A DNA stretch of 13,843 bases from a virus. The notes under the pieces were generated by a model that was not told the DNA's origin, ran no database searches, and worked only from the letters and a program-made list of their open reading frames with translations. The stretch is taken from the UHGV virus genome UHGV-0253101; one strand, given 5' to 3'. Made by a program: the position numbers and the translations under genes. Shown one piece after another: positions 1 to 13,843 of the stretch. The first letter of the stretch is position 1. Each line of letters opens with the position of its first letter.

Positions 1-138
<138 letters not shown>

Positions 139-142
139 CTAG
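139..142. repeat. CTAG immediately flanking the IS5 end; probable 4-bp target-site duplication
   Basis: IS5 is known to make 4-bp duplications at YTAR targets, and CTAG abuts the inverted repeat. The second copy would lie at the other IS5 end, outside the window. Confidence 0.45.
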
Positions 143-296
143 AATAGGCAGAGCTAAGCTGTTCGTCTAATTTTGACAGACGTTCGTTATCGCAGATTTT
201 ATGTTCGATTGCTGTCGAAGCCTTTTGGCAGTCAAAGCTGGCTGCAAATGCACCCGGCGATGCCACTAACAATGATGCCAGTAGGATATTTTTCAT
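139..296 (-). pseudogene. Small secreted protein gene interrupted by IS5 after about 53 codons
   Basis: The ATG at 296 (complement of 294..296) has a GGAG about 7 nt upstream. It encodes MKNILLASLLVASPGAFA (signal-peptide-like, AFA-AS cleavage site) then SFDCQKASTAIEHKICDNERLSKLDEQL. The reading frame runs into the IS5 inverted repeat at 138 and stops inside IS5 at 111 (tracked ORF 111..323). The N-terminus tentatively resembles LprI/DUF1311-type periplasmic proteins. Confidence 0.5.
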
Positions 297-590
297 ATTC
301 ACTCCATAAATACAAAAGCGCATTACTATAGCACTTAACCGATCGCTTATCTCGCCCGTTCGTCATTCTTATCTAACCAGAACATGCGGCTGCCACAGCA
401 CATGTCGAGGATCGCTGCATGTCCAGTCACCGGTTGCCTCCTTTGCGCAATATCGCATTCAGATATTTGTTTTGATTCACTGATGGAAACGAGTTTCGCT
501 TAAGTAATTCCTCTCTCGATGGCATTGGCTTTACGCGTTGGCGAATAATCATTTCTGCCGGAAGAATGCCGGGATTGTATGCAAGTCCTC

Positions 591-881
591 TCATGATTTA
601 CTCTCAACGAACTGGTCAATAGCCATGCTAAGTGACATACCTAAAGTTTCGATATGCTGCTGAATATCCTGTAGCGTCTGCGCCTGAGATAACAGGATTT
701 CACGGTTGCATAACTCTTTAACCAGATGCTCAAACTTGCTGTAATAACCGATACGACTTAGTGTTTCTTTCCCTGCATTCTCGCCTTCTTTGATAATTCC
801 TCTTTCGCTAAGAATCAGATCGTGTTTGGTTCCGGTAATAACGTATTTTCCGAGGTCGATGTTTAGCTTCATTGTTTTCAT
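591..881 (-). CDS. hypothetical protein (about 97 aa), second gene of a two-gene minus-strand operon
   Basis: Part of tracked ORF 591..1031. The ATG at 881 ([14 protein letters not shown]...) has GAGGAA 8-12 nt upstream. An alternative ATG at 899 ([11 protein letters not shown]) sits 2 nt from the upstream gene's stop in an ATGACTGA arrangement. No recognisable motif. Confidence 0.5.
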
Positions 882-891
882 TGTTAATTCC

Positions 892-1185
892 TCAGTCATT
901 ACTGATAGCGCCATAGCGTGAGCGGTAATTACGCAGGCGAGGGTCAATTTCAGGGAAGTGGGTATATGTGGCTTTGCGGAATGGGCGGATTGATGTCTGG
1001 TAAATTCGCTCGCGTTCTTCTTTCTCTGCAAGCCATATACAATGGCGAAATTCCTTTTCCTCTTTCGTTTCCTGCGGTAGCGACATTATCCGGTCGTAGT
1101 TTTTTCTGAATTTATCCAGCACCTCCGATACGGAATTGCCGGAACAGCGGCGCGCGTCATCCTCACCATACAGAGGCGCTGGCAT
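892..1185 (-). CDS. hypothetical protein (97 aa), first gene of the two-gene minus-strand operon
   Basis: Tracked ORF with a strong AGGAGA Shine-Dalgarno 5-6 nt upstream of the ATG (complement of 1183..1185). Charged, Arg/Lys/Glu-rich protein with no recognisable catalytic motif. Confidence 0.55.
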   Translation of the reverse strand: MPAPLYGEDDARRCSGNSVSEVLDKFRKNYDRIMSLPQETKEEKEFRHCIWLAEKEERERIYQTSIRPFRKATYTHFPEIDPRLRNYRSRYGAISND

Positions 1186-1254
1186 GTTTTTCTCCTGATT
1201 AAATTGCGTGAATAGCGTGACGAGGGAAGGGGAGAGTTACTGGTGCAAAGGGTA

Positions 1255-1362
1255 TATATAACGAGCGTGTTCATCGGCTACATCGGTACTGACTCGATAG
1301 GTTCGCTTATCAAACGCTTCGCTGCTAAAAAAGCCGGAGTAGAAGATGGTGGAAATCAATAA
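1255..1362 (+). pseudogene. S: 3' remnant of a lambda-type holin S gene (last ~35 codons only)
   Basis: The frame ending at TAA 1360..1362 translates to ...[35 protein letters not shown], matching the C-terminal tail of lambda S as I recall it, and overlaps the R start as in lambda. An in-frame TAG at 1213..1215 and unrelated sequence upstream of about 1255 exclude a full-length holin. No plus-strand ORF of at least 60 aa ends here in the track. Confidence 0.7.
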
Positions 1363-1822
1363 TCAACGTAAGGCGTTCCTCGATATGCTGGCGTGGTCAG
1401 AGGGAACTGATAACGGACGTCAGAAAACCAGAAATCATGGTTATGACGTCATTGTAGGCGGAGAGCTATTCACTGATTACTCCGATCATCCTCGCAAACT
1501 TGTCACGCTAAACCCCAAACTCAAATCAACAGCAGCCGGGCGCTATCAGCTTCTTTCCCGTTGGTGGGATGCCTATCGTAAGCAGCTTGGTCTGAAAGAC
1601 TTCTCTCCCAAAAGTCAGGACGCTGTGGCATTGCAGCAGATTAAAGAGCGTGGCGCTTTACCGATGATTGACCGCGGTGATATCCGTCAGGCTATCGACC
1701 GTTGCAGCAATATCTGGGCTTCACTGCCGGGCGCTGGTTATGGCCAGTTCGAGCATGAGGCTGACAACCTGATTGCAAAATTCAAAGAGGCTGGCGGAAC
1801 GGTCAGAGAGATTGAGGTATGA
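1346..1822 (+). CDS. R: endolysin, lambda R-type lytic transglycosylase (158 aa)
   Basis: Protein [51 protein letters not shown]... is near-identical to lambda R as recalled. Its start overlaps the S remnant stop. Confidence 0.95.
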
Positions 1823-2256
1823 GCAGAGTGACCGCGATTATCTCCGCTCTGGTTATCTGCATCATCGTCTGCCTGTCATGGGCTGTTAATCATTACCGTG
1901 ATAACGCAATCGCCTACAAAGACCAGCGGGATAAAGCCACAACCATCATCGCTGATATGCAGAAGCGTCAACGTGACGTAGCAGAACTCGACGCCAGATA
2001 CACAAAGGAGCTTGCTGATGCTAACGCGACTATCGAAAGTCTCCGTGCTGATGTTTCTGCTGGTCGTAAGCGCCTGCAAGTCGCCGCCACCTGTGCAAAG
2101 TCAACGACCGGAGCCAGCAGCATGGGCGATGGAGAAAGCCCAAGACTTACAGCAGATGCTGAACTCAATTATTACCGTCTCCGAAGTGGAATAGACAGGA
2201 TAACCGCGCAGGTTAACTACCTGCAGGAGTACATCAGGACTCAGTGCCTGAAATAA
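1819..2256 (+). CDS. Rz: spanin inner-membrane subunit Rz (i-spanin), 145 aa
   Basis: ATGA overlap with the R stop. N-terminus [31 protein letters not shown] is a transmembrane segment, followed by a coiled-coil-like region as in lambda Rz. Confidence 0.9.
2012..2194 (+). CDS. Rz1: spanin outer-membrane lipoprotein subunit Rz1 (o-spanin), embedded in Rz in the +1 frame
   Basis: 60-aa ORF wholly inside Rz. Lipobox-like LLVVSAC followed by a proline-rich stretch ([16 protein letters not shown]), the architecture of lambda Rz1. Confidence 0.8.
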
Positions 2257-3094: not shown

Positions 3095-3301
3095 ATGATG
3101 GACAATTATTTTAAATCTGGCGATAACCGAGTATCTGATTCTGAGCACCAGCGTTTAGTGGCTACCAAAGCAGCTCTTGAAATTATCAAGGCCGCCGTAT
3201 CTGCCCCTACCCATGCGAAAAACGTGTCTTATGATTTGGAGGAGGCAATAAAATATCTTCCACGGTTGACTGATGCTATTCAGGAAACGATTGGCAAATA
3301 G
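3095..3301 (+). CDS. hypothetical small protein (68 aa)
   Basis: GGAAGG ribosome-binding site about 5 nt upstream of the ATG. Predicted helical and hydrophilic. Lies in a visibly AT-rich stretch. Confidence 0.45.
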   Translation: MMDNYFKSGDNRVSDSEHQRLVATKAALEIIKAAVSAPTHAKNVSYDLEEAIKYLPRLTDAIQETIGK

Positions 3302-3353
3302 CATTTGATTTTAGTTTTATTATCTCACCTTAAATATGAGTGAGATTAATACA

Positions 3354-3377
3354 AAGCTACCTACGAGTAGCTTTTTA
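3354..3377 (+). terminator. possible rho-independent terminator after the 68-aa ORF
   Basis: aagctac ... gtagctt inverted repeat (7-bp stem, 6-nt loop) followed by tttt. Confidence 0.4.
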
Positions 3378-3441
3378 ATGGCTTATACCTTACACGGGAT
3401 AACTTAACTGATATCCCCACAAGCGGATAAAGAGATTCTCA

Positions 3442-3567
3442 ATGTCCAACATCTACCAAATCACGTTAACCACCCAAACAGGCGAAACCGTTACGAGCAA
3501 GACGTCACGATTTCAGCATGAGTTGGTTAACGGCTTTGTGCCGCTTGTGATCGAGACGGGAGAGTGA
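3442..3567 (+). CDS. very small ORF (41 aa), speculative
   Basis: ATG...TGA encoding MSNIYQITLTTQTGETVTSKTSRFQHELVNGFVPLVIETGE with only a weak AAGAG upstream. The frame stays open for about 21 more codons past the TGA, so it may be a nonsense-interrupted longer gene. Confidence 0.2.
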   Translation: MSNIYQITLTTQTGETVTSKTSRFQHELVNGFVPLVIETGE

Positions 3568-3697
3568 CTGTATTTCTCTCCCGACAATGTGAAGCGCATA
3601 CAGTTCACGCCAGAATTGAATGATGAAGCGTGATAAGTGGCTATTTTGTGGTATAGGTTTATGCGCTAAAACAATCAATTAGCTCAGTCAATGATCT

Positions 3698-4222
3698 CTA
3701 TTGTCCTGCAACTTGTTTAGTGAGTCTTAGGATGATGCTGCCAAGAATAGCTATGAATTTTTCACGATTATTGGCATCTGGACGGTTAAGATTCAGCTCA
3801 ATGTCTCCAACTTTTATGCCGAATCTTGCTGAGTTAATGAGATCTTCCTGACCACCTCGGCTAATAAATGTTCGTAATGATTCAATTTCTGCGTCAGTTA
3901 TTTCCGGGTTGTCTATTTGATGAGAGCGAACATTTCTTATTCTATTTAGGCGTTTAAGTTCTGCGACGGAGTGTTCATTTAGGCCGAGGTTGGCAGCTAG
4001 CTGAATTTTTGCGGCATAGGTCATGGTTAAGTTTTCACCAAATCCATCAAATAGATTTTGGTTACCTACAGCGGCGCAACAAAATGCCTCAATCATTGCT
4101 TCTGTAATCAGATGTACTCTTAAAACCAAACCAATATCATCTTCAGTATTTACTAACCTTTCAATTCGTTGCCAAGTTGCTTCGTTCATTATGAACTTTG
4201 ATTCAAAAATTTCAGGATTCAT
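3698..4222 (-). CDS. HEPN-like protein (174 aa); candidate abortive-infection or toxin-type defence gene
   Basis: Tracked ORF antisense to the late operon. An R-N-V-R-S-H motif (Rx4H, residues 96-101, coded at 3920..3937) fits the HEPN Rx4-6H ribonuclease signature, in a predicted all-helical protein. Visibly AT-rich compared with the flanking terminase gene. AGGT about 6 nt upstream of the ATG. Confidence 0.6.
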   Translation of the reverse strand: MNPEIFESKFIMNEATWQRIERLVNTEDDIGLVLRVHLITEAMIEAFCCAAVGNQNLFDGFGENLTMTYAAKIQLAANLGLNEHSVAELKRLNRIRNVRSHQIDNPEITDAEIESLRTFISRGGQEDLINSARFGIKVGDIELNLNRPDANNREKFIAILGSIILRLTKQVAGQ

Positions 4223-4249
4223 TTATTTACCTTATCAGCAGGGGAAAAT

Positions 4250-4777
4250 ATGGCGCTCACTGACAAACAAGAAATGTTCTGTCGCGAGTACCTCATCGAT
4301 TTAAACGCCACGCAAGCGGCTATTCGGGCGGGGTACAGCGCAAAAACAGCCAACCGTACTGCGTCCGAAAACATGTCAAAACCTGACATACAACTCAGAA
4401 TCTCCGAATTGAAAGCACAACGCAATGACTCTGTTGGAATAAATGCAGAATATGTACTTAATCGCCTTATTGAAATCGACCAGATGGATGTGCTCGACAT
4501 TCTCCTGCAAAACGGTGAGTTAAAGCCCATTAAAGACTGGCCTAAGGTATGGCGCACAACGTTATCAGGAATGGATGTTGTGGAGATGGTATCCGCAGAT
4601 AGTGCAGCACTCCTGAAGAAAATCAAATGGCCTGATAAGGTTAAAAACCTCGAACTTCTTGGTAAGCATGTTTCTGTTCAGGCGTTTAAAGAACAAGCTT
4701 CTCACGAACTAACAGGCAAAGACGGCGGCGCAATCCAGATTGAAACATCACCGATGAGCACTCTATTCGGAAAATGA
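4250..4777 (+). CDS. terminase small subunit (175 aa), Terminase_2-like N-terminal DNA-binding domain
   Basis: N-terminus MALTDKQEMFCREYLIDLNATQAAIRAGYS is the characteristic small-terminase helix-turn-helix signature. ATGA overlap with the large terminase start. Confidence 0.9.
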   Translation: MALTDKQEMFCREYLIDLNATQAAIRAGYSAKTANRTASENMSKPDIQLRISELKAQRNDSVGINAEYVLNRLIEIDQMDVLDILLQNGELKPIKDWPKVWRTTLSGMDVVEMVSADSAALLKKIKWPDKVKNLELLGKHVSVQAFKEQASHELTGKDGGAIQIETSPMSTLFGK

Positions 4778-6099
4778 CCTCGATTAATCCTATCTTTGAA
4801 CCGTTCATTGAGGCGCATCGCTACAAAGTCGCCAAAGGCGGTCGAGGTAGCGGTAAGTCATGGGCAATTGCGAGGCTTCTTGTTGAAGCGGCGCGTCGGC
4901 AGCCTGTGCGTATTCTTTGCGCTCGTGAGCTGCAAAACAGTATCAGCGATTCGGTAATCCGGTTGCTTGAAGACACCATCGAGCGTGAAGGATATTCGGC
5001 TGAGTTTGAAATTCAGCGTTCCATGATTCGTCATCTCGGAACGAATGCTGAATTCATGTTCTACGGCATCAAAAACAACCCGACGAAGATTAAATCGCTC
5101 GAAGGCATTGATATCTGTTGGGTGGAAGAAGCTGAAGCGGTAACGAAGGAATCATGGGATATCCTGATACCAACCATCCGCAAGCCATTTTCCGAAATAT
5201 GGGTGAGCTTCAACCCGAAGAACATACTCGACGATACCTATCAGCGGTTCGTCGTAAATCCTCCTGATGATATTTGCCTGCTGACGGTGAACTACACCGA
5301 CAACCCGCACTTTCCTGAAGTTCTCCGTCTGGAGATGGAAGAGTGCAAACGCAGAAATCCGACACTGTATCGTCACATCTGGCTTGGTGAGCCAGTAAGC
5401 GCAAGTGATATGGCAATCATCAAACGTGAATGGCTTGAAGCCGCAACCGATGCGCACAAGAAACTCGGATGGAAAGCGAAAGGCGCTGTTGTCTCTGCGC
5501 ATGACCCGTCAGATACAGGGCCGGATGCTAAAGGTTATGCATCGCGTCACGGTTCGGTTGTTAAGCGCATTGCCGAAGGTCTGCTGATGGACATCAATGA
5601 AGGTGCTGACTGGGCAACTTCGCTGGCGATTGAAGACGGTGCTGACCATTACCTGTGGGATGGTGATGGTGTTGGTGCTGGCCTACGCAGACAGACAACG
5701 GAAGCGTTCTCCGGCAAGAAAATCACCGCCACGATGTTCAAGGGCAGTGAATCGCCATTCGATGAAGATGCGCCGTATCAGGCCGGAGCATGGGCTGATG
5801 AAGTCGTACAGGGCGACAACGTTCGCACTATTGGTGATGTGTTCCGCAATAAGCGAGCGCAATTCTATTACGCGCTGGCTGACAGGCTGTATCTGACATA
5901 TCGGGCGGTTGTTTACGGTGAGTATGCAGACCCCGACGACATGCTGAGTTTCGACAAAGAAGCGATAGGCGAGAAGATGCTGGAGAAGCTGTTTGCAGAA
6001 CTGACGCAGATTCAGCGCAAATTCAATAACAACGGGAAGCTGGAGCTAATGACTAAGGTCGAAATGAAGCAGAAGCTCGGTATTCCATCTCCTACGTGA
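4774..6099 (+). CDS. terminase large subunit (441 aa), probably C-terminally truncated
   Basis: Walker [10 protein letters not shown] near the N-terminus, then a nuclease-domain-like C-terminal half. Ends ...[10 protein letters not shown]-stop, whereas homologues as I recall them continue with an SP-D/N-L-ADAL segment. Confidence 0.9.
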
Positions 6100-6100
6100 G

Positions 6101-7456
6101 GTGAATAAATGCCGATTGTTGGCTGGTATCGGTGGTGTCAACTCAAACGCTCCGAGCGTAAATGACATCGGCAATACGCTTCAGCTTATCAGGCAGAACA
6201 ATGATATTGAGCGTTCAGGCGCTAACAATGTTGGGCTGACTGCTTTGCAAGGCCTTTCAGGTATTGCGGGTGTTTTTCAGCAGGAAAAGCAGGCTCAGCG
6301 GCAGAAAGAATTTCAGCAGGCATACGCTAAAGCTTATGCGTCTGGTGATCGCGGTGCTTTGCGTCAGTTGGCTACTCAATATCCAGACCAGATTGAATCT
6401 GTTCGTAAAGGCATGGGATTCATTGATGAAGACCAGCGTAATTCTATCGGCACCTTAGCGGCTGGCGCACGCCTTGCGTCATCGTCTCCAGAAGCAATGC
6501 AATCATGGCTGCAAAACAACGCCAAGGAACTGACTCGCGTCGGTGTTGACCCTAACAGCGTTGCTCAGATGTATCAGCAGAATCCTTCAGGATTTGGTGA
6601 GTTTGTTGATCACCTTGGGATGGCTGCGCTTGGTCCGATTGATTACTTCAATGTTCAGGACAAGATAGCTGGTCGTGAGATTGACCGAGGCAGACTGGCA
6701 GAGACAATCCGCAGCAATCAGGCTGGCGAGGCGCTAACAGCGCGTGGTCAGAATATCACGATGCGCGGTCAGGATTTATCGATGCAGAGAGCATCAATGA
6801 AAGGGGCGGTTGGGAATAATGAGCGTACAGTTCAGTTAGCAGATGGCAGAACTGTAACGGTAGGCGGGAAGCTTCACGGCGCTGGGGCTAATGCGTTCTA
6901 CGAAGGTATCGACAACGAGGGGAATATGGTTCGCGTTCCTGCTGGTTCTATTGCCGCTCCGGCTACATCGGCAGCAAGCGCGCAGAATTACGCAATGAAG
7001 AAAGATCTTGATGCAATTTCTGGTGCATCAATTGACGATCTTGGCTTCATGACTGGCATTACAGGCTCTTCAGGTTCTCCTGCTCTTGGTGCAGATATTC
7101 GTAGCCGTGCATCTGGTGGTGATCAGAGGAAACTATACAACGCTGCACAGCGAATCCAAGGAAAGATGCAGAATCAGGGCATTGCAGCAGCCAGAGACAT
7201 GGGGGCATCCGGTATCAACACCGTTGCAGAAGCAAAGATGTATTTTCAAGGTATGCCACAGGTTGATTTCTCAAGCCCTGAAGCACTGCAACAATCAATG
7301 CGCGACATTCAGCAATATACCGACAATTACAACCAGCAATATAACGTTAATGTCGGTAATGGCGGGAAGAAATCATCAAGGCAACAGCCAGCTACTCAGC
7401 AATCAGCAGGAGGTAGCTACACGTCAAAATCAGGCATTCAATTTACGGTGGAATGA
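6101..7456 (+). CDS. putative DNA-ejection (injection) protein, P22 gp20-like (451 aa), N-terminus uncertain
   Basis: Starts at a GTG one nucleotide after the terminase stop. Gln/Ala/Gly-rich with no catalytic motif. Size and position (second-to-last late gene before the immI-like region) match P22 gene 20 (about 471 aa). Confidence 0.5.
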
Positions 7457-9316: not shown

Positions 9317-9799
9317 TTATTTTATAGTTTTTATGAATTCTTTATTAAATCCCTTTGCTTCTCCGGGGTATCTTCCGAAGACAATTTTTATAAAAACAGA
9401 AAAAATAAAGATAGCAACGCTTAACAACAATTGCAGTATCATTGGAACCCAAAGAACTACAGGCTCTATATTCATGAAACCAAATATTCTTCCGGCGATC
9501 ATGGCGAAGTACCACACTGTTATCAGCAAACTTAGTGGCATATGAATTACTGATATTACCAATCCAAGAGCATCAGTAATTCTGTTTTCAAATTTTTCAG
9601 GGGAAAACTTTTCTTTAAGGTAATTCAGTGCGCAGGCCTCATTCTCTGGATTTTCAGCATTTTTCCCTATAGCAATAGAAATCTCAGATATCCTTGATTC
9701 AATTCTTTTACGTTTAATAAAACTAGAAAAAAAGAACCACGCAATCTGCAACCCTATCCCCAGAAATAGAGTTGCGGCAACTAGCACAGCGTAACTCAT
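9317..9799 (-). CDS. multi-pass membrane protein (161 aa); candidate SieA-like superinfection-exclusion protein, by position
   Basis: Internal start of tracked ORF 9317..10027 ([24 protein letters not shown]...) with AGGAGG upstream. About three hydrophobic helices (residues ~3-25, ~83-105, ~112-140) around a charged loop. Strongly AT-rich. Occupies the slot between gene 16 and mnt that holds sieA in P22. Confidence 0.55.
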
Positions 9800-9841
9800 A
9801 GAATCAGACACACCAACCTCCTTAGTTTTGCGCAGGATACC

Positions 9842-10207
9842 ATGAAAAAAGTTAACATTGGAAACGTACCAAAGATGCTCGTTCCGCTCTTTGAGAGCGG
9901 TACAATTGTGTTTTGTAGAGACTTTCCAGAATGGCAACGCCTGCATCAAAAACTTGGCGTTGACGTGCATGACTCGGACGCCAACGGAGCGTCTCATACA
10001 ATGAGTAGCGAGAATGGTGTTTTGCATGTGATAGGCGTGTTCAATGGCAAACTATCTACTATTGCCCATGAGTGCGCTCACATGGCATTCGATATCTGCT
10101 CAAGGGTAGGTGTTGATGTTGAACCAGGAAGAGCCAACGAGACTTACTGCTACTTAATGAGCAGGCTTGTTGAGTTCTGCGAGCGACATATCAAAAAGCC
10201 GGAGTGA
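9842..10207 (+). CDS. small HExxH-motif protein (121 aa), possible minimal zinc metallopeptidase-like protein
   Basis: Tracked ORF divergent from the membrane protein gene, with a 42-bp gap between them. H-E-C-A-H at residues 76-80 (10067..10081) within [11 protein letters not shown]. Several Cys/His residues. No confident family assignment. Confidence 0.5.
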
Positions 10208-10490: not shown

Positions 10491-10516
10491 AACCCACCTT
10501 CAGGTGGGTTTTTTGT
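10491..10516. terminator. rho-independent terminator-like hairpin overlapping the mnt stop codon, possibly bidirectional
   Basis: aacccacc-ttca-ggtgggtt is a perfect 8-bp stem followed by tttt on the plus strand. On the minus strand the same stem is followed by aattttt. Confidence 0.55.
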
Positions 10517-10751
10517 ACAAATCCTTCAGCGTATCAAACACCATCTTCTTAACAAGCTCTGACTGCTCATCAGCGATGCGTTCCGCATCGTCTCGATAGC
10601 CTGAAATTTTGGATGGCTTTGATACAGCATCAGTCACTATCTGAACTAATTCTGAATTAAGAGAGCGGCCATTGGATTTGGCTCGCTGTTTTAGTTTTTC
10701 CTTTAATTCGTAAGGTAGCCGCAGATTAAATTGCGGGTCATCTCTTCCCAT
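10500..10751 (-). CDS. mnt: Mnt repressor (83 aa), Arc/MetJ-type ribbon-helix-helix
   Basis: Protein MGRDDPQFNLRLPYELKEKLKQRAKSNGRSLNSELVQIVTDAVSKPS...DDAERIADEQSELVKKMVFDTLKDLYKKPT matches P22 Mnt closely as recalled, in length and sequence. Confidence 0.9.
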   Translation of the reverse strand: MGRDDPQFNLRLPYELKEKLKQRAKSNGRSLNSELVQIVTDAVSKPSKISGYRDDAERIADEQSELVKKMVFDTLKDLYKKPT

Positions 10752-10897: not shown

Positions 10898-13843
10898 ATG
10901 ACAGACATTACAGCCAATGTTGTAGTGAGTATGCCTTCGCAACTCTTCACTATGGCGCGTTCTTTTAAAGCCGTAGCCAATGGCAAAATTTATATCGGTA
11001 AAATTGACACTGACCCGGTAAATCCTGAAAACCAGATTCAGGTTTATGTAGAGAACGAAGACGGTTCTCACATTCCTGTTTCGCAACCAATAATCATTAA
11101 CGCTGCTGGATATCCGGTATATAACGGACAGATTGCCAAATTCGTTACCGTGCAAGGCCATTCTATGGCTGTTTATGATGCGTATGGTGCGCAGCAGTTC
11201 TATTTTCCTAATGTGCTGAAGTATGATCCTGATCAGTTACGGCAGCAATTAGAAGACCCAGATGGAGCGAATAAATACCCAAAACTTCAGATAGCAAGAT
11301 GGAGAGACAGTTATGATGTAAGAGGTTGGGGGGCTATTGGTGATGGTGTTCATGATGACACATCAGCTCTATCAGAATTACTTTCTGTTGCAACAGGTGG
11401 TGAAAAGATAGATGGGCGAGGGCTTACTTTTAAAGTATCAACTCTTCCAGATGTCAGTCGATTTAAAAATGCTCGTTTTTTATTTGAGAGAATACCGGGT
11501 CAGCCTCTTTTTTATGCTTCTGAAGATTTTATCCAGGGAGAGTTATTTAAAATTACAGATACACCGTGGTACAACGCCTGGACGCAGGATAAAACGTTTG
11601 TATATGACAATGTCATCTATGCGCCTTTTATGGCTGGAGACCGCCATGGTGTAAATAACCTCCATGTTGCATGGGTTCGCTCAGGAGATGACGGGAAGAC
11701 CTGGACAACGCCGGAATGGCTTACAGATTTACATGAAAACTATCCCACAGTTAACTATCACTGCATGAGTATGGGGGTTGTCAGAAATCGCCTTTTTGCT
11801 GTAATTGAGACGCGGACCGTGAGCGGAAATAAACTGCAGGTTGCAGAGTTGTGGGATCGCCCAATGAGTCGCAGCCTTCGCGTTTATGGTGGTATAACGA
11901 AAGCAGCAAATCAGCAAGTCGCTTATATTCGCATTACTGATCACGGATTATTTGCTGGTGATTTTGTCAACTTCTCAAACTCTGGTGTTACAGGTGTTAC
12001 CGGGAATATGACGGTGACTACTGTTATTGATAAAAATACTTTTACAGTTACGACGCAAAATACCCAGGATGTGGATCAGAATAACGAGGGTAGATACTGG
12101 AGTTTTGGTACATCATTTCACTCGTCACCATGGAGAAAAACCAGTCTTGGAACTATTCCTTCTTTTGTTGACGGAAGCACTCCTGTTACTGAGATTCACA
12201 GTTTTGCGACGATTAGCGATAACAGTTTTGCTGTTGGCTACCATAATGGTGATATTGATCCACGCGAGCTTGGGATACTCTATTTCTCTGATGCTTTCGG
12301 TTCTCCTGGTAGCTTTGTTCGCAGACGCATACCTGTAGAATATGAGGCGAATGCATCTGAGCCATGTGTAAAATATTATGATGGCATTCTGTATCTGACG
12401 ACCAGGGGGACATTAAGTACTCAACCCGGTAGTTCATTGCACAGAAGCTCTGATTTAGGTACATCATGGAATTCTCTTCGCTTCCCAAATAATGTTCATC
12501 ACTCAAACCTTCCTTTTGCCAAAGTTGGCGATGAGCTGATTATTTTTGGCAGTGAGCGCGCATTTGGTGAGTGGGAAGGAGGAGAACCTGATAACCGTTA
12601 TGCAGGAAATTATCCAAGAACATTTATGACCAGAGTTAACGTCAATGAGTGGAGTCTGGATAATGTAGAGTGGGTTAATGTTACTGATCAGATTTATCAG
12701 GGCGGAATAGTTAACTCTGCGGTTGGTGTTGGTTCAGTTTGTATCAAAGACAACTGGCTGTACTACATTTTCGGTGGGGAAGACTTTCTAAACCCATGGA
12801 GCATAGGGGATAACAACAGAAAATATCCTTATGTTCACGATGGTCACCCGGCTGATTTGTATTGTTTCAGGGTGAAAATTAAACAGGAAGAATTTGTTTC
12901 AAGGGATTTTGTCTACGGAGCCACTCCTAACAGAACGCTTCCTACTTTTATGTCGACGTCAGGCGTGAGGACGGTTCCTGTACCCGTTGATTTCACAGAT
13001 GATGTTGCCGTCCAGTCACTGACTGTCCATGCAGGTACATCAGGACAAGTTCGCGCGGAAGTCAAACTTGAGGGTAATTACGCCATTATTGCGAAGAAAG
13101 TACCGTCTGATGATGTTACCGCTCAGAGATTAATCGTTAGCGGCGGTGAAACAACGTCTTCAGCAGATGGTGCAATGATAACGTTGCATGGTTCCGGAAG
13201 CAGTACTCCACGTCGCGCGGTATATAACGCACTCGAACATCTTTTTGAGAACGGAGATGTTAAACCTTATCTTGATAATGTAAATGCTCTTGGTGGTCCG
13301 GGAAACAGGTTCTCGACAGTTTATCTTGGCTCCAATCCTGTGGTTACCAGTGACGGAACATTAAAGACAGAGCCGGTCTCTCCTGACGAAGCATTGCTGG
13401 ATGCCTGGGGTGACGTCAGGTATATCGCTTATAAATGGCTGAACGCTGTCGCTATAAAGGGGGAAGAAGGGGCGAGGATACATCATGGTGTAATCGCGCA
13501 GCAACTTCGTGATGTTCTTATTTCTCACGGACTCATGGAAGAAGAAAGCACAACATGCCGCTATGCGTTTCTTTGCTATGACGATTATCCCGCAGTATAT
13601 GATGACGTCATTACTGGCCAAAGGGAAATGCCGCTGACTGATAATGACGGGAGCATCATTGTTGATGAGGATGATAATCCAGTGATGGTAATGGAAGACA
13701 TCATTGAGCGCGTTGAAATAACGCCAGCAGGATCTAGATGGGGGGTCAGACCTGATCTCTTATTCTATATCGAGGCGGCATGGCAGCGCAGAGAAATAGA
13801 AAGAATAAAAGCTAGGTTAGACTTAATAGAAGGGAAGCACTAA
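10898..13843 (+). CDS. tailspike protein (981 aa): P22 gp9-type head-binding domain, sialidase-like domain with two Asp-boxes (probable endosialidase) and C-terminal intramolecular-chaperone autoproteolytic domain
   Basis: GGAG about 8 nt before the ATG. N-terminus [50 protein letters not shown]...VLKYDPDQ is collinear with the P22 gp9 head-binding domain. Asp-boxes SGDDGKTW (11681..11704) and SSDLGTSW (12446..12469) fit the S-x-D-x-G-x-T-W consensus. The C-terminal ~160 aa ([10 protein letters not shown] ... [13 protein letters not shown] ...) resemble the peptidase S74 chaperone domain of endosialidases and some tail fibres. Confidence 0.9.

Follow-up and report, generated by a model that had tools for sequence, protein, structure and literature searches.

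The 13,843-nucleotide stretch of virus genome UHGV-0253101 analyzed here, which we refer to as the window, carries on its minus strand a 174-codon gene that is very likely a tai gene, TaiEcB or a near-identical allele, encoding a single-protein prophage defence with a stand-alone HEPN domain distantly homologous to HepS of Salmonella. Tai proteins were described as single-gene defences found mostly in accessory loci of prophages, in the majority of cases ahead of the packaging module (He et al., Nat Commun 2024, PMC11364771). The gene has already been described in this sense: naming and testing of the family date from 2024, and the present variant is very probably among those that were tested. 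An initial annotation, made from the DNA letters, had proposed a candidate single-gene defence or exclusion factor, and homologues have indeed been shown to be anti-phage by experiment (Tai, PMC11364771). The gene and its immediate landmarks are the following:

3698 to 4222, minus strand: tai gene (TaiEcB-type), ATG start, 174 codons plus stop, predicted stand-alone HEPN-fold anti-phage protein
3920 to 3937, minus strand: codons R96-N97-V98-R99-S100-H101, HEPN Rx4H motif, read directly from the sequence
4223 to 4249: divergent intergenic region of 27 bp between tai and terS, with both ribosome-binding sites inside

The open reading frame (ORF) at 3698-4222 is a real gene under purifying selection and not a chance reading frame. 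In comparisons with homologues, the proportion of nonsynonymous differences (pN) was 0.13-0.45, while that of synonymous differences (pS) was saturated at 0.72-0.86. Its product, deposited in RefSeq as WP_001067622.1 and labelled "hypothetical protein," matched phrog_5483 (E = 1.7e-50). Close homologues formed 16 clusters, in Enterobacterales, and an exhaustive profile search yielded 367 homologue representatives at E ≤ 1e-3. The initial annotation had described a visibly AT-rich 174-amino-acid (aa) minus-strand frame starting 27 bp from the divergent terminase start, and measurement agreed on each count. The GC content of tai was 38.5%, and its GC content at third codon positions (GC3) was 29%, compared with 45.8% GC for the window and a GC3 of 45-54% for the terminase genes; the distance from its start codon to the terS ATG at 4250 was exactly 27 bp. 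The tai Shine-Dalgarno sequence AAGG was found at 4230-4233 (minus strand), 7 nt upstream of the start, and the corresponding site of terS is GGGGA.

Membership in the Tai family, whose 57 homologues were collected by PSI-BLAST searches starting with TaiPectA/B and further Tai versions (PMC11364771), is a near certainty as judged from sequence comparison. A tblastn search of phage genomes with the window protein matched 3 of 50,697 records, namely, FSL SP-016 and phi80, the latter deposited twice. Identity to the window protein was 58.8% in FSL SP-016 (36278-36787; E = 1e-61) and 30% in phi80 (44440-44919; E = 5e-15), and pairwise comparison with TaiEcA gave an E-value of 4e-22. Both matches are entries of Table S3 of PMC11364771, i.e., TaiSalA (KC139516, 36,278-36,823; FSL SP-016) and TaiEcA (JX871397, 44,365-44,979; phi80 orf63). 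The same table lists TaiKlebC (K. aerogenes) and TaiEnterobD (E. cancerogenus), each of 525 bp, which correspond to members of the closest clusters of the window protein.

The joint fingerprint of species, length, position, and identity makes it highly probable that the window carries TaiEcB itself or a near-identical allele. TaiEcB is listed for E. coli 9.1649 (NZ_AEZY02000006, 51,336-51,860) with a length of 525 bp and the location "before terS" (Table S3, PMC11364771). Its published identities are 56.9% (99/174) to TaiSalA and 28.3% to TaiEcA (Table S2, PMC11364771); for the window protein we obtained 57.5% (100/174) and 26-31%, respectively, the latter depending on the denominator. No cloning primers for TaiEcB were found in the supplement of PMC11364771. 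Like TaiEcB, the window gene is a single gene in a prophage accessory locus, antisense to the late operon, of the same length, in the same species, and in the same position before terS. No substantive difference from the Tai family emerged. No Ati-type counter-defence gene accompanies the window gene (only five Ati-like genes occur in the data set of PMC11364771), and it sits in a decayed prophage remnant without Q and the late promoter.

The fold of the window protein is soundly assigned to HEPN on the combined basis of a predicted structure, profiles, and residue conservation. The AlphaFold2 model, computed with 14 homologues (pLDDT 89.9, pTM 0.86), comprises seven helices and one beta-hairpin (residues 135-144). 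Comparison of this model with known structures gave the following structural scores:

HepS, solo HEPN protein of prophage Gifsy-1: 13.9, over 143 residues with 18% identity (top fold match)
YggD/MtlR: about 11
Sacsin HEPN: 9.7
AF0298: 9.4
HepT toxins: 8.4
Csm6: 7.3
AbiA: 6.9
LsoA: 6.2

Independently, Foldseek placed four HepS chains on top (E = 7e-4, TM 0.54-0.57), with YggD/MtlR next. A first-round profile, of the close clade, run against the PDB retrieved HepS at E = 2e-4 and aligned RNVRSH with RNKYAH (R100-N101-K-Y-A-H105), and a broad second-round profile of 150 members reached HepS at E = 2.3e-17, spanning HepS residues 21-196. Weak Pfam HEPN matches were scattered through the wider family (n = 150), with 29 to RiboL-PSP, 11 to Cthe2314, 7 each to DUF4145 and Abi_2, and 1 to MtlR. 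The initial annotation had called the protein HEPN-like because of an Rx4H motif in a helical context and had proposed structure prediction against HEPN families as a check; the motif is present at residues 96-101, and the predicted fold came out as HEPN, with the profiles in agreement.

Taken alone, an Rx4H motif is weak evidence, as it occurred in 21% of composition-matched shuffles (RNx3H in 2%). In the window protein it is meaningful because it is near-invariant across the family: among 150 representatives, R96 was kept in 148, N97 in 149, and H101 in 148. E41 was invariant (150/150), H37 was also near-fixed (144/150), and D28 was kept in 135/150. In the published HEPN signature, the R of Rx4-6H is followed by a polar residue (N/D/H), and an N-terminal helix contributes a conserved acidic residue (Anantharaman et al. 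2013); the window protein shows this signature with an all-alpha core fold, R96-N97-x3-H101, and the acidic residues E41 and D28.

Several other searches returned nothing significant. Against Pfam and NCBIfam, the window protein gave nothing significant (one sub-threshold match to DUF6548, E = 0.029), and no family of PADLOC-DB v2 (2023) matched it at E up to 1, consistent with the report that DefenseFinder and PADLOC do not recognize the two founding tai genes of Pectobacterium phage-inducible chromosomal islands (PMC11364771). A single-sequence search against PDB sequences returned nothing, the viral structure library BFVD contained no meaningful match, and an Rfam scan of the whole window was empty. 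Since TaiEcA alone also found nothing in the PDB and Pfam, the link to HEPN needs profiles or structure.

To connect Tai with HepS, we used a profile built from distant family members only, with the window's own clade excluded; E-values refer to a PDB-sized database, and the HepS sequence compared comprised residues 19-198, recovered from an hmmsearch alignment. The scores with this distant-member profile were as follows:

TaiEcA: 178 bits, E = 1e-51
TaiSalA: 150 bits, E = 5e-43
Window protein: 148 bits, E = 3e-42
HepS: 65 bits, E = 6e-17

These scores place the Tai proteins at the core of a stand-alone HEPN family and HepS on a more distant branch of it. HepS is a solo HEPN abortive-infection anticodon nuclease of the Gifsy-1 prophage (Sargen et al., Nature 2026, PMC13043305; PDB 9oij/9oik), and the HepS family was delimited as stand-alone HEPN proteins of <250 aa with Rx4-6H that iterative profile searching from HepS recovers, with 393 homologues (PMC13043305). 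In the reverse direction, the profiles seeded from the window protein reached HepS, as given above. The protein rests as a tetramer of two HEPN dimers, and a J peptide opens the HEPN sites; binding of J probably also blocks J trimerisation (PMC13043305). Defence by HepS needs R100 and H105, and the protein cuts tRNA, with tRNA-Thr/Ile/Ser as targets, and is non-toxic when expressed alone (PMC13043305). Terminal segments with S13, D15, S202, and T203 combine with the J trigger peptide into a composite beta-sheet, F66, K78, and L83 are interface residues, and Y20/I107 are allosteric (PMC13043305).

The window protein resembles HepS in being a solo, prophage-borne HEPN protein with no conserved partner gene and with the R/N/H motif aligned. 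Of the functional HepS residues, I107, F66, and L83 correspond to I103, F58, and L79 of the window protein, whereas K78 is not conserved (Q74). The two differ in length (174 versus about 210 aa), at H37, which is near-invariant in the Tai-type family and Asn in HepS, and in genomic slot, which is the lysis/terS junction for tai and the replication/antirepressor region for HepS; the carrier in the window is moreover a podovirus. The word HEPN is absent from the Tai paper (PMC11364771), the Tai paper is not cited in the HepS paper (PMC13043305), and the terms "tail assembly inhibition" and "HEPN" do not occur together in any paper of the searchable literature. The connection between Tai and HepS/HEPN has apparently not been made in the literature and may be the new element here.

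The published experiments on Tai proteins define what the window gene would be expected to do. Protection against lambdoid phages was conferred by 8 of the 10 phage-borne variants tested, and HK106 and HK544, when induced, gave only tailless capsids with TaiEcA, TaiEcB, and TaiEcD (PMC11364771). Escape mutations were located in the C-terminal portion of J, the central tail fibre; with TaiEcC, which acted on P22 and HK620, they were located in the tail needle gp26 (PMC11364771). Cells were protected at low multiplicity of infection (MOI) but no longer at high MOI, and the proteins were non-toxic when expressed alone (PMC11364771). TaiEcA is produced constitutively in lysogens; its gene is embedded in the Q-controlled late operon in antisense orientation, its level drops on Q overexpression, and phi80 escapes self-inhibition via the adjacent late gene orf64 (AtiEcA) (PMC11364771). 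Tai and HepS are both tied to the tail-tip protein J, the former by escape mutations and the latter by direct binding.

We propose the following mechanism. As observed in the window, tai is an exchangeable, AT-rich accessory gene placed directly upstream of terS and antisense to the late genes. In a lysogen, it would be expressed from its own promoter, and Q-dependent late read-through would dampen it during lytic growth, by analogy to TaiEcA of phi80 (PMC11364771). The resting protein may be an inactive oligomer, as shown for HepS. Upon infection by a lambdoid siphovirus, newly made J would be bound and tail assembly would fail, so that tailless, non-infective particles are released and the population is protected, as seen for TaiEcA, TaiEcB, and TaiEcD with HK106 and HK544. 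In addition, the HEPN active site (R96/N97/H101) is probably opened by this binding, upon which tRNA or other RNA would be cut, as by HepS; this step is suggested by the near-invariant motif and the homology to HepS. A P22-like podovirus carrier lacks a J protein and would not need a self-immunity gene. No AtiEcA homologue was present in the window, which is plausible if such a carrier has no J protein to attack. On balance, we incline to the view that Tai proteins and HepS form one superfamily of trigger-activated solo HEPN nucleases and that the reports of 2024 and 2026 are two views of one mechanism.

Several points weigh against the explanation as a whole. We infer both the identity with TaiEcB, from the fingerprint, and the RNase step for Tai proteins. 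Similarity to HepS is only about 18-21% overall, and the segments that build the trigger-binding sheet of HepS, about 18 N-terminal residues and the C-terminal tail, have no counterpart in the window protein; with these strands missing, it must bind J differently if it binds J at all. Because the remnant has neither Q nor the late promoter, the late-transcription switch cannot operate in the window copy. A search for sigma-70 consensus promoters ahead of tai, in the window (4223-4500, minus strand) and at six homologous loci, found none; nor was an intrinsic terminator found downstream of the gene in the window, where folding shows nothing unusual (z = -1.5). As a mere 27 bp separate tai from terS, its promoter must be located within the terS coding sequence or overlap with it. 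In Terminase_2 loci, the 5' coding region of terS was the sole conserved sequence upstream of tai. The promoter-less appearance of the seven tai loci contrasts with the constitutive expression published for TaiEcA. Finally, phage DNA replication, lysis, and capsid production were normal in the presence of Tai, and the authors argued for direct inhibition of assembly rather than abortive infection (PMC11364771). Such normal replication, lysis, and capsids fit poorly with a strong translation block and allow at most a partial one.

These last observations are also what speaks for the strongest alternative, in which Tai is a purely stoichiometric blocker of tail assembly, the HEPN scaffold serves as a binding platform, and RNxxxH is not catalytic. 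We consider this possible but less probable than a nuclease. Tails were lost while replication, lysis, and capsids were unchanged, the authors themselves set Tai apart from abortive infection (PMC11364771), and some HEPN families are non-catalytic, e.g., part of MtlR and the HEPN domains fused to nucleotidyltransferases (NTases). On the other hand, the motif decays in HEPN families that have lost catalysis, whereas R96, N97, H101, and E41 are kept in almost all of the diverged representatives at the frequencies given above. The homologue HepS depends on R100 and H105 for defence and cuts tRNA, and protection at low but not high MOI is the pattern of an abortive system.

Comparison with other HEPN systems bears on two further explanations. 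The first, that the protein is the toxin of an HEPN toxin-antitoxin pair (HepT/MNT, RnlA/RnlB, or LsoA/Dmd type) with an antitoxin that has escaped notice, is very improbable. No MNT (nucleotidyltransferase) antitoxin gene was found in the window or in any homologous locus examined, and no other neighboring gene was conserved across the tai loci examined, which agrees with the initial annotation in that no antitoxin-like partner is adjacent. Flanking small ORFs were unrelated between loci, and on this ground a small convergent ORF was rejected as partner or antitoxin of tai. HepT and LsoA scored far below HepS; HepT/MNT type II/VII toxins (PDB 5yep, 7ae2) represent a minimal HEPN, from which the extra helices and the beta-hairpin of the window protein are absent. 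In addition, HepS and Tai proteins are non-toxic alone, and the only known inhibitor, AtiEcA, is a phage counter-defence without a homologue in the window. Equally improbable is a non-enzymatic, HEPN-fold regulator of phage or host gene expression resembling MtlR/YggD (PF05068; PDB 3brj, 3c8g, 6kcr). Those proteins are chromosomal regulators of mannitol operons, about 40% of which have lost Rx4-6H, whereas the Tai-type motif is near-invariant, the gene always resides in prophages or cassettes with no mannitol/PTS (phosphotransferase system) context, and the window protein has no Pfam match. HepS is also the better match in both structure and sequence, and defence has been demonstrated directly for homologues.

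Tha of S. aureus prophages, encoded with Ith, is a further tail-activated HEPN anti-phage system (Rostol et al., Nat Microbiol 2024, PMC11087260), which we set beside tai by description. It, too, is a prophage HEPN RNase triggered by a phage tail protein, and an antisense "noncontiguous operon" couples its expression to the prophage cycle. Tha differs in being larger, with the motif R265/H270 and a disordered N-terminal part of 167 residues, and in residing in the lysogeny operon together with a dedicated inhibitor, Ith.

The genomic distribution of tai is that of a sporadic accessory gene. It was found in 2 of 5,426 complete E. coli genomes, and the exact window protein was indexed in 1,200 blocks of a large assembly collection. 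The contexts of the exact protein were almost always the same P22-like prophage slot, once with a different head module; the same slot was occupied by tai in SW4848 and in 10 further E. coli contexts. A blastn comparison with a sister prophage of E. coli TUM12357 delimited the exchanged segment:

3613 to 4248: exchangeable cassette, right junction exactly at the terS start codon

In TUM12357, 3613-4248 is replaced by 336 bp with an unrelated 72-aa minus-strand ORF. This slot ORF (positions 3255-3590 of our locus L004) is WP_053903632.1 and lies antisense, immediately upstream of terS. This suggests that the junction next to terS serves generally for the exchange of antisense accessory genes. 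Among published tai genes, the location listed most often is "before terS" (Table S3, PMC11364771), and the terS-adjacent arrangement of the window also occurs in Enterobacter, Pantoea, and metagenomic loci. More generally, homologues were found at the lysis/packaging junction in Enterobacter, Citrobacter, Pantoea, Serratia, and a metagenomic lineage, despite unrelated terminases and heads, and in FSL SP-016 and phi80, the homologue is the only antisense gene in the interval from the lysis cassette to the packaging end. Every prophage copy examined was antisense to the surrounding late genes, across unrelated virion modules. A functional link between tai and terS was considered and rejected, since the same terS (91% identical) occurs with a different slot gene and since tai is also found beside unrelated small terminases or within tail clusters.

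An example of the latter is a homologue from Kluyvera ascorbata (53% identical; L020/L021, 7001-7537), which is antisense in a lambda-like tail cluster, between the tape-measure gene and gpM/L/K/I/J, a location that fits the "between tail genes" class of Table S3 (PMC11364771). The Kluyvera carrier therefore itself encodes the likely trigger. A more distant member in Vibrio diabolicus (L019, 7001-7606) was located in a chromosomal-integron-like array of small same-strand ORFs.

This distribution leaves next to no room for an ordinary phage life-cycle gene with a core late function, or for a spurious antisense ORF: although tai lies inside the late region beside the terminase genes, it is found in so few of the E. 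coli genomes and phage records searched, its slot in the sister prophage holds an unrelated gene, it is antisense to all late genes, phi80 lacking taiEcA remained viable (the deletion phage could be spotted and served for making lysogens; PMC11364771), and purifying selection is strong and the family deep. Conserved core phage homologues, which the initial annotation had named as grounds for abandoning a defence role, were thus not what was found.

The window as a whole is a decayed P22-like prophage remnant. Besides tai and its landmarks, the following features were recognized:

427 to 594, minus strand: DUF2737 gene, early-left
892 to 1185, minus strand: anti-RecBCD gene, early-left
1346 to 1822, plus strand: endolysin (lysozyme), lysis gene in late direction
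1819 to 2256, plus strand: Rz-like spanin (Pfam Phage_lysis, E = 2.9e-36)
2459 to 2989: KilA-N protein
3095 to 3301: 68-aa protein
4250 to 4777, plus strand: terS, Terminase_2 small terminase (PF03592, E = 1e-39)
4774 to 6099, plus strand: terL, shortened, 441 aa versus 470-471 aa in intact relatives
9317 to 10027, minus strand: SieA-like superinfection exclusion protein (phrog_7745, E = 1.9e-108; PGAP version shorter, 164 aa)
10500 to 10751: Arc-family repressor gene
10898 to 13843: tailspike gene, running off the window

In the region 4774-7456, the shortened terL is joined directly to the gene of a DNA ejection protein (6099/6101), so the genes from portal to needle have been deleted and the prophage copy is defective; the portal, scaffold, coat, gp4, gp10, gp26, gp14, and gp7 genes are gone. 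Likewise, the early-left genes abut a truncated holin just before the endolysin (window 1-1362), and hence the immunity, replication, nin, and Q genes are missing. The initial annotation had described tai as interrupting the late operon. Its position between the lysis genes and the terminase was correct, but the operon is here a relic without Q and the late promoter, and no late operon is left for tai to interrupt. About 400 bp of mostly non-coding DNA also lies between the lysis genes and tai. The window matched E. coli EC931 at 100% except for an IS5 element present in EC931; EC931 and OZ040824 carry the same remnant with the extra IS5, and SW4848 and many other assemblies carry the intact prophage. 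In the remnant, tai has remained intact, as the neighbor of the SieA-like exclusion gene, which is the second defence-type gene of the window.

Three additional ORFs or proteins were noted. A small unannotated ORF (MSNIYQITL...ETGE) at 3442-3618 on the plus strand contains an in-frame TGA stop at 3565-3567, and its similarity to a 68-aa E. cancerogenus prophage protein runs through this stop (49% over 59 aa); the ORF is a pseudogene or else a candidate for read-through. Since the ORF at 3442-3567 is also present in TUM12357 without tai, it belongs to the prophage backbone and is not a partner of tai. A late-strand ORF of 110-111 aa was shared, with 68% identity, by FSL SP-016 (L002, 3589-3924) and Citrobacter koseri (L007, 7595-7927). 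It is divergent from the taiSalA-type genes and occupies the position of atiEcA in phi80, its sequence being unrelated to AtiEcA; this ORF could be an alternative anti-Tai gene. Lastly, the family profile matched a 1,424-aa protein (P0050) in 12 separate stretches, all corresponding to the N-terminal helix region (positions about 15-56), and P0050 may be a repeat protein built from the N-terminal helix of the Tai family.

The finding joins two recent papers on homologous proteins that had arrived at different mechanisms, i.e., a direct block of tail assembly and abortive tRNA cleavage. The window protein, still a "hypothetical protein" and missed by Pfam, NCBIfam, and PADLOC v2, is nevertheless common in E. 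coli prophages. If the proposed kinship in mechanism is true, TaiEcB-type proteins would depend on R96 and H101 for their defence and, on binding a tail protein, would cleave tRNA or other RNA, and their trigger-binding surface would differ from that of HepS, as the N- and C-terminal strands are lacking. The arrangement also points to a general design, in which prophages keep single-gene defences inside the late operon in antisense orientation, so that the phage's own late transcription can turn these defences down.

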